A stretch of 32,000 nt of DNA. It comes from Pseudoalteromonas tetraodonis (GTDB taxonomy: Bacteria > Pseudomonadota > Gammaproteobacteria > Enterobacterales > Alteromonadaceae). Location of the stretch: contig NZ_CP011041.1 in NCBI RefSeq assembly GCF_002310835.1, forward strand, positions 2,940,001 to 2,972,000, read 5' to 3'. The notes beneath the pieces were generated by a model, which saw only the letters and a list, made by a program, of their open reading frames with translations, had not been told where the DNA came from and searched no databases. Position numbers and translations under genes: made by a program. Positions 22,737 to 23,304 of this stretch are shown here, piece by piece (position 1 is the first letter of the stretch; every line of letters starts with the position of its first letter).

Positions 22737-23304
22737 TATCAGCTATCAGCTATCAGCTATCAGCTATCAGCTATCAGCTATCAGCTATCAGCTATCAGCT
22801 ATCAGCTATCAGCTATCAGCTATCAGCTATCAGCTATCAGCTATCAGCTATCAGCTATCAGCTATCAGCTATCAGCTATCAGCTATCAGCTATCAGCTAT
22901 CAGCTATCAGCTATCAGCTATCAGCTATCAGCTATCAGCTATCAGCTATCAGCTATCAGCTATCAGCTATCAGCTATCAGCTATCAGCTATCAGCTATCA
23001 GCTATCAGCTATCAGCTATCAGCTATCAGCTATCAGCTATCAGCTATCAGCTATCAGCTATCAGCTATCAGCTATCAGCTATCAGCTATCAGCTATCAGC
23101 TATCAGCTATCAGCTATCAGCTATCAGCTATCAGCTATCAGCTATCAGCTATCAGCTATCAGCTATCAGCTATCAGCTATCAGCTATCAGCTATCAGCTA
23201 TCAGCTATCAGCTATCAGCTATCAGCTATCAGCTATCAGCTATCAGCTATCAGCTATCAGCTATCAGCTATCAGCTATCAGCTATCAGCTATCAGCTATC
23301 AGCT
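22737..23304. repeat. Perfect heptanucleotide tandem array (ATCAGCT / TATCAGC phase) x 81.1
   Basis: I checked all 568 nt line by line and found no deviation from the 7-nt unit. It is intergenic, between the lpdA terminator and the tapT start codon (60 nt away). Confidence 0.99.

Follow-up and report, generated by a model that had tools for sequence, protein, structure and literature searches.

The subject of this study is a tandem repeat in the chromosome of Pseudoalteromonas tetraodonis (contig NZ_CP011041.1), located in a stretch of 32,000 nt that is referred to as the window and whose coordinates are used throughout. The repeat occupies 22737-23304, in the intergenic region between two genes of the minus strand. 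One of these is lpdA, which encodes dihydrolipoyl dehydrogenase (23424-24881; NCBIfam TIGR01350, E=5.5e-147) and is the last gene of pdhR-aceE-aceF-lpdA. The other is a tapT-like DTW-domain gene, called tapT below, which starts with GTG and encodes a protein of 228 aa (21990-22676; Pfam DTW PF03942, E=2e-54). Tandem Repeats Finder (TRF) reported the repeat as (ATCAGCT)x81.1 with a period of 7, 100% matches, 0% indels and a score of 1136, and the raw letters of the segment agree with this call of a perfect array. On the strand of the flanking genes the unit reads (AGCTGAT/TAGCTGA)n. The array lies on the upstream side of tapT with its start 60 nt from the GTG codon, and its other end is 69 nt from the hairpin of the intrinsic lpdA terminator, which a terminator scan placed at 23374-23401 on the minus strand as a 12-bp stem followed by a T-run. 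The original prediction, made from the sequence alone, had described a perfect run of about 81 heptamers here at essentially these distances from its neighbors, and it proved accurate in both respects. Among periods of 4-15, 7 is the sole one with any array of at least 3 copies in the window, and a chance origin of the tract can be ruled out. The exact count of 81 rests on the assembly and is a plausible figure. The tract itself is a real and natural feature and belongs to a hypervariable variable-number tandem repeat (VNTR) with a heptanucleotide unit, of which it is an exceptionally long allele.

The tract had also been predicted to be non-coding, and its reading frames bear this out. No open reading frame (ORF) of at least 20 aa overlapping the tract was listed for either strand. 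Direct reading of the minus strand, AGC TGA TAG CTG ATA GCT GAT, shows that each of its frames contains both TGA and TAG. Read as (ISYQLSA)n, the plus strand is free of stops over 568 nt in any frame, and no ATG, GTG or TTG provides an entry into this reading.

Allelic variation upstream of tapT

A public-assembly collection lists the identical TapT protein in 82 of its blocks, and ten loci from it (L001-L010) were analyzed, L010 being CP011030.1 from Pseudoalteromonas issachenkonii KMM 3549. The comparison within the window's own species involved flanks with 97.5-100% nucleotide identity. Among these close relatives, (AGCTGAT)n was present in 5.1 copies in L006, 7.1 in L009, 14.1 in L005 and 16.3 in L003 as compared to 81.1 in the window, and (GCCCGCA)n was present in 2.7 copies in L004, L008 and L010, 5.1 in L002, 9.1 in L007 and 10.1 in L001. 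The site is thus polymorphic in copy number between close relatives, as is characteristic of a VNTR. A broader sample with one genome per species comprised 80 loci, all from Pseudoalteromonas, with TapT identities from 96% to 66% and 1.53 Mb of sequence. This sample is centered on one genomic neighborhood, and the counts given for it are of perfect arrays with at least 3 copies unless mismatches are stated. The ATCAGCT unit was found at the same site and in the same register in L003, L005, L006, L009, L019, L022, L023, L025, L026, L028 and L034, with 18 copies in L019 and 16.7 in L025, both from other species. Elsewhere it is replaced by GCCCGTA (L012), GGCTTAC (L020), TAACCAC (L038, L039, L041 and L047) or CTTGTAG (L040), and many of the 80 species have no array at all upstream of tapT. 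A single GCTGAT is present at the junction in L011 and L044 and two copies in L024 and L029 (species without the array), and this one- or two-copy sequence is likely the seed from which the array arose. Degenerate period-7 relics were found at the site in L011, L038 and L047. The array in L012 shows polarity, with a variant unit throughout except for the flank-proximal copy. The original prediction held that the repeat is dynamic and recently homogenized. Its view is supported by the different copy numbers and units beside flanks of 98-100% identity, by the seeds and relics, and by the purity of the arrays in the genus, 30 of 35 of which are perfect. In the TRF comparison of relatives, the array upstream of tapT was not fixed in length and the arrays were almost always pure. 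As a separate observation, L011 carries upstream of tapT (9432-9713) an array of 282 nt with a 14-nt period, (AGATATT AGAAATC)x20 at 90% identity, which is a higher-order repeat of two diverged, alternating heptamers.

Every array abuts a tapT-proximal block on the minus strand (22677-22736) that is conserved across species with and without arrays. The order on this strand is TCTATTCCC-N12-TACAAT, a GC-rich stretch and the 5' leader, and the consensus of the block is (G)ATATCTATTCC-N12-GCTACAAT(A/G)CGCGCC. We interpret the block as the putative core promoter of tapT with TACAAT at 22710-22715 as its candidate -10 hexamer, in which case the last array unit would overlap the -35 position. A strict sigma-70 scan reported 0 sigma-70-like sites in 21300-23500, the putative TACAAT block included. 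The arrays upstream of tapT end 0-19 nt from the conserved block regardless of their unit type, and alleles with at least 4 copies have identical sequences from -38 to at least -60 of the tapT promoter. Because a pure array directly adjoins the putative core promoter, the proximal sequence is constant and copy number could act through distant elements only. The spacer between lpdA and tapT ranges from ~135 nt in the array-free L013 and L017 to 747 nt, indicating that the spacing between the two genes is not constrained.

Three intergenic haplotypes between lpdA and tapT occur within one species, and each is common to other species too. Haplotype A is that of the window. Haplotype B (L001, L002, L004, L007, L008, L010 and L012) has a different terminator, a ~200-nt segment with a repetitive extragenic palindromic (REP)-like hairpin, and (GCCCGCA)n. 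Haplotype C (L003, L022, L023, L025 and L028) consists in order of (CCGTCAG)n, a conserved spacer of ~47 nt containing CTTGACAC, and (TAGCTGA)n. The lpdA terminator is part of this exchangeable cassette and differs between A and B or C. L010 is 100% identical to the window in both lpdA (2250 nt) and tapT (687 nt), yet it carries haplotype B, and its segment 2673-3000 diverges from 22677-23423 of the window from just past the lpdA stop codon to the promoter block. The presence of haplotype B between identical genes suggests that the whole spacer was moved by allelic exchange or recombination, or else that the polymorphism is old. In L019 and L022, the sequence beyond the arrays (upstream of 9820) differs from that of the other loci and is unlike lpdA, whereas (CCGTCAG)n, the spacer, (TAGCTGA)n and tapT are kept together. 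As this arrangement is retained despite the different upstream sequence, the arrays travel with tapT. The tract had been proposed to insulate tapT from the pdh operon. This finds no support in L019 and L022, in which the arrays stay with tapT beside a gene that is not lpdA-like, or in the array-free species with their short spacers.

Some further details of these cassettes were noted. By eye only, the upstream sequence in L019 and L022 resembles the 3' end of an rRNA-methyltransferase gene. The spacer of haplotype C (…CTTGACAC…GCAAAAYTTTG) lies between two mutually inverted arrays, the inversion relating to their common TCAGC core, (TCAGCCG)n as opposed to the reverse complement of (TCAGCTA)n. 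This spacer might serve as an upstream promoter, or it might form the loop in a long imperfect hairpin. The REP-like hairpin element, CGCGAGGTAAACTCGC with variants such as GCGCGAGATAAATTCACGCC, is found in the lpdA-tapT spacer, sometimes in several copies, in L018, L027 and L031 as well as in the haplotype B loci.

We considered the possibility that the array is real but that its 81 perfect copies are a product of assembly, with the length mis-estimated by a long-read assembler or polisher, or that they reflect a heterogeneous culture. L005 has 5,037 nt of flanks with 0 mismatches to the window, yet its array is exactly 99 nt long, and no other array above ~23 copies was found in any dataset searched (for the metagenomes, among the matches listed). 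However, 99 and 127 nt are standard k sizes in de Bruijn assembly, and arrays of exactly 127 nt are found in L019 and at the contig end of L025. A perfect repeat longer than k would be expected to collapse to ~k in such an assembly, so that L005 would argue for a longer array in that strain. In addition, independent assemblies break or gap at the array upstream of tapT. Contigs start inside the array in L026 and L041, two arrays are separated by an N-gap in L033, and the array is cut off at the end of the metagenome contig L116, which is 99% identical on its lpdA side. Because of collapse to the k size and contig breaks, short-read data under-report long alleles, and an allele of 81 copies is therefore plausible in what is presumably a long-read assembly. 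The tract of the window also keeps the register and flanks of the short alleles, the lengths of 568, 99, 50 and 36 nt all being 1 mod 7. We regard an artifactual or mixed copy number as unlikely, although it deserves to be kept in mind.

Heptamer arrays in the genus and beyond

The window contains two other perfect heptamer arrays identified by TRF, which the original prediction had not mentioned. The second array, (TCAGCGG)x9.1 at 21832-21895, lies between the 3' ends of tapT and a GGA-rich region that resembles a small RNA (sRNA). The third, (TTCGGGG)x5.9 at 30716-30756, lies between ampE and pdhR. The pdh operon is bracketed by heptamer arrays. The second site has an allelic series of its own: a seed of 1.7 copies with the sequence GCTGACCGCTGA in L003, L009 and L001, 7.7 copies in L010, 9.1 in the window and 10.7 in L005. 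In L006, a variant unit, ACCGCTT, fills this array with the exception of the flank-proximal copy. The unit of the third array, which reads CCGAACC on the other strand, is present in sister species in 9.9 copies in L011 (1988-2056) and 19.3 copies in L012 (2205-2339). These arrays lie ~8 kb upstream of tapT, as does the third array in the window, and they were matched by this offset only. Other units occur near the same offset in L031, as (AACCTAA)x22.4, and in L023.

Non-coding 7-base repeats are a trait of the genus and are specific to period 7. The sample of 80 species contained 37 perfect arrays of period 7 with up to 22.4 copies, but only 0-2 arrays for each of the periods 5, 6 and 8-12, and the 21 arrays of period 4 had 3.5 copies at most. 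With mismatches allowed, TRF found 35 arrays of period 7, and besides the 30 that are perfect, four more are at least 96% pure. The TRF matches for periods other than 7 were nearly all low-scoring with 2-3 copies, the one exception being the 14-nt array in L011. By the TRF count with mismatches allowed, arrays were ~6x denser in the clade near the window, with 29 in 0.70 Mb, as compared to 6 in 0.83 Mb for the more distant clade with TapT identities of 73% or less.

An over-representation of heptameric intergenic simple sequence repeats (SSRs) in some bacteria has been described, with polymerase slippage as the suggested cause, in PMC4692102 and PMC4679880, which cite Mrazek et al. 2007. As that work is quoted in both reports, heptanucleotides are the most over-represented among the long SSRs of prokaryotes with units of 5-11 nt, and as quoted in PMC4679880, the genomes richest in repeats of 5-11 nt belong to Burkholderia, cyanobacteria, actinobacteria and Xanthomonas. 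The longest arrays mentioned have 26 copies in Nostoc and 43 copies in Bacteroidetes, and heptamer arrays persist at the same gene junctions while varying in length and sequence (PMC4692102, PMC4679880). The tract agrees with the long SSRs of Mrazek et al. 2007, as they are quoted, in its head-to-tail 7-nt units, its intergenic position, the length variation between relatives and the lineage-specific excess of period 7 over neighboring periods. With 81.1 copies at 100% identity it is far beyond the length expected by chance for units of 5-11 nt, and it is non-coding, placed between the lpdA terminator and the putative tapT promoter. It has every testable defining feature of the class of bacterial intergenic heptanucleotide SSRs. 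The original prediction had called the tract very unusual for a bacterial chromosome. This stands for its length, which is ~2-3 times that of the longest arrays quoted in PMC4692102 and PMC4679880, but not for its kind, which is common in the genus and described in the same reports. Our literature searches found no report of such heptamer repeats in Pseudoalteromonas.

The tract differs in its defining features from TAACTGA repeats, from G-quadruplex repeats and from clustered regularly interspaced short palindromic repeats (CRISPR) arrays, and it departs from a classical contingency locus in the kind of gene that lies downstream. TAACTGA intergenic direct repeats are known from marine Beggiatoaceae, cyanobacteria and some Bacteroidetes (MacGregor 2015, PMC4679880). 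The window unit on the gene strand, TAGCTGA, is one substitution away from them, and the resemblance extends to the same "forward" orientation upstream of an ORF, to stops in all three frames of the gene strand with a translatable reverse strand, to the presence of other heptamers in the same intergenic regions, and to assemblies that break in the arrays. TAACTGA arrays, however, are mostly of 2-6 copies and immediately precede start codons, in genomes described as having no canonical ribosome-binding sites (PMC4679880), whereas the window array lies upstream of a putative promoter, 60 nt from the start codon. Membership in the TAACTGA family was rejected as the unit is TAGCTGA, not TAACTGA. 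The G-rich heptameric repeats include GGGAATC in Xanthomonas and GGGGA(C/T)T in Nostoc (PMC4692102). Like these and the cyanobacterial short tandemly repeated repetitive (STRR) sequences, the arrays described here are intergenic and kept at the same junctions with varying length and sequence, and they include inverted pairs, such as (CCGTCAG)n and (TAGCTGA)n of haplotype C, which are opposite by their TCAGC core. The ATCAGCT/AGCTGAT unit has no G-run and does not belong to the G-quadruplex class, which needs a run of at least 3 G in each unit; the third window array, (TTCGGGG)n, alone resembles the G-rich group and, from its composition, could form G-quadruplexes as the Xanthomonas and Nostoc heptamers do. 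A CRISPR array was likewise rejected, for the tract has 7-nt units head to tail and no spacers, as opposed to repeats of ~24-48 nt with unique spacers. The units of the window also differ from the cyanobacterial STRR units CCCCAGT, TTGGTCA and CAACAGT.

Arrays of the ATCAGCT unit are not limited to the genus. At least 120 metagenome contigs carry (ATCAGCT)n with at least 5 copies; among the matches listed, their GC contents range from 33% to 72%, their arrays reach 19 copies, and the heptamers that co-occur most commonly are ACCGCTG and ACGGCTG, which also neighbor ATCAGCT in Pseudoalteromonas. The locus upstream of tapT was represented, again among the matches listed, only by L116, L167 and L173. 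In viral contigs, arrays of at least 4 copies numbered 14 for ATCAGCT, 10 for TCAGCGG and 32 for TAACTGA, as compared to 1, 0 and 2 for three composition-matched scrambles. For the reversed unit TCGACTA the number was 8, and for TAACCAC, which is unrelated, it was 21. With these last two counts, a favored N[G/A]CTGAN ("CTGA-core") family linking the tract to TAACTGA could not be established. Heptamer units clearly differ widely in their frequency of expansion.

Origin of the array and alternative explanations

We propose that the tract is a hypermutable non-coding heptanucleotide SSR of the long intergenic 7-nt class, most likely without a dedicated function, and we hold this with good though not full confidence. 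A short local seed, GCTGAT(A), beside the tapT core promoter would have been duplicated first, and the array may then have grown and shrunk in 7-nt steps by replication strand slippage, unequal recombination between copies, or both. If this turnover is much faster than point substitution, the copies would stay identical, and a copy beside the unique flank would take little part in it, leaving the proximal boundary fixed. Among the alleles of this old repeat locus, the one with 81 copies would mark the upper extreme of length. The pattern described above fits such a mechanism, since pure arrays, seeds, relics and a terminal copy that resists change are expected under replication slippage or unequal exchange. 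The predictable effect of the array may be limited to distancing everything upstream of ~-38 of the tapT promoter, the lpdA terminator included. Since the spacing is unconstrained, the proximal sequence is constant, and the array has neither a fold nor an Rfam match, it would be functionless or at most incidentally modulating, and none of the findings suggests a dedicated function. An alternative considered was that five unit types had arisen independently at one boundary. This was judged less parsimonious than the in-situ turnover of units at one old locus because the proximal flanks look like decayed heptamers.

Several points weigh against this proposal. The mechanism is drawn from the pattern only, and it does not account for the period of 7. 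Unrelated units all end within the same short distance of one conserved promoter block, and the ATCAGCT unit persists at the site in species with TapT proteins that are 82-87% identical. Selection for an array at the site can explain both the boundary and the persistence, as can common descent of an old repeat locus. The arrays of exactly 99 and 127 nt are suspect and part of the apparent polymorphism may be due to assembly collapse; only the 36-nt and 50-nt alleles, which are below k, can safely be taken as evidence of real polymorphism. In another explanation, the three sites around the pdh operon would be maintained "array slots" and not passive microsatellites, which could mean selection for a long arbitrary spacer at operon boundaries, or an active and sequence-biased process that generates heptamers across phyla. 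The regeneration of unrelated heptamers against the same promoter boundary would fit, as would the finding that whole cassettes (A, B and C), together with their terminator, coexist in one species and recur in others, and the co-occurrence of ATCAGCT, ACCGCTG and ACGGCTG in metagenomic contigs with 41% to 66% GC (among the matches listed). We nevertheless consider maintained sites distinctly improbable.

Slightly more credible than this, yet still doubtful, is a tunable or contingency promoter element, in which copy number sets tapT transcription through the distance or helical phase to an upstream promoter, an activator site or the lpdA terminator. A precedent exists in the adhesin genes hmw1A and hmw2A of non-typeable Haemophilus influenzae, which have phase-variable 7-bp repeats between their promoters and coding region and for which copy number has been shown experimentally to grade expression. 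The tract is similar in that a 7-bp unit lies upstream of a gene and varies in copy number between isolates. It adjoins the predicted -35 of the highly conserved TACAAT block, arrays with several different units recur at this promoter boundary in many species, and the 47-nt spacer with CTTGACAC between the two arrays of haplotype C could be an upstream promoter. Repeats of contingency loci are found within an ORF, in the 5' untranslated region or between the -35 and -10 elements, and the tract lies directly upstream of the predicted -35 of a putative core promoter. On the other hand, the distant elements that a copy-number effect needs did not appear in the promoter scan of 21300-23500, and the wide range of spacer lengths and the many array-free species speak against such a role. 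Moreover, the sister arrays at 21832-21895 and 30716-30756, being between convergent 3' ends and far from starts, respectively, share no common promoter logic. The gene downstream has a DTW domain and the neighbors are pdh genes, with no surface, host-interaction or restriction-modification function among them; tapT is what we take to be a housekeeping tRNA-modification gene, unlike the surface adhesins or the surface and restriction-modification genes typical of contingency loci. A protein-binding or structure-forming array involved in nucleoid organization, a barrier to replication or transcription, or non-B DNA is less probable than either of the above. It could draw on the 81 identical sites, which give a super-period of 21 bp or two helical turns, on the AGCT palindrome in the unit, and on the G-quadruplex-capable sequence of the third array, which is like the heptamers of PMC4692102. 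The 21-bp phasing is arithmetic, however, and provides no evidence of binding, and the replacement of the unit by unrelated sequences at the site is hard to square with a sequence-specific binder. Folding was examined with single strands of 10 copies for six units (nine strands) using DNA parameters. The unit of the tract folded no better than shuffles on either strand (z -0.92 and -0.58), the TAACCAC, GTGGTTA and AACCTAA strands had no fold at all, and CCGAACC was marginal at -0.5 kcal/mol. The structure-forming role in the original prediction is thus not supported, and a hairpin or cruciform as the common factor was ruled out by the shuffle comparison and the non-folding sister units. Rfam at gathering thresholds gave no match in the whole window; with E-value cutoffs no meaningful match fell on the tract, and the output was limited to terminator-like noise at 23324-23450 and a sub-threshold CsrB match elsewhere. 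A coding role for the plus strand, with an (ISYQLSA)n product read from its stop-free frames, can practically be dismissed, since no start codon opens into the tract, allele lengths differ by multiples of 7 nt and not of 3, and other strains have unrelated units or no array at the site.

Taken as a hypermutable SSR, the tract supplies a ready VNTR marker of high discriminating power within the P. issachenkonii group, and it is documented to break contigs and to collapse in short-read assemblies of the region. A single defined site, with a fixed boundary and visible turnover of units, offers a natural series of alleles that extends from seeds of 1.7-2 copies up to 81 copies. Pseudoalteromonas is a culturable genus in which to study why bacteria preferentially expand 7-nt units, and gene-deletion mutants have been made in P. 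fuliginea (PMC11882849). If tapT expression did depend on copy number, tapT would be a rare example of an SSR-tuned tRNA-modification gene, but nothing in the analysis points there.

Other features of the window

Upstream of lpdA on the minus strand are aceF (25015-26940), aceE (26951-29617), pdhR (29702-30454) and ampE (31059-31910). The sRNA-like region next to the second array extends over 21400-21830 on the plus strand and is convergent with the 3' end of tapT. The GGA motif occurs in it 23 times as compared to ~10 expected, and there is a sub-threshold match to Rfam CsrB at 21431-21643 (24.4 bits, E=3e-4). Near 21786-21822 the region ends with a GC-rich hairpin and a T-run, a hairpin that the terminator scan did not report, and the (TCAGCGG)n array begins ~10 nt past them. 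Csr-type Pf sRNAs have been described in Pseudoalteromonas fuliginea (PMC11882849), and the region is probably one of these. A perfect direct duplication of 30 nt, TGAACAAACATTAAATCCAGCCTTTTCGTA, with a spacing of 50 nt at 21895-21924 and 21945-21974, adjoins the distal junction of the second heptamer array. This sequence is single copy in the six related strains aligned, and its duplication is what chiefly distinguishes the window from L005, which otherwise matches it almost completely.

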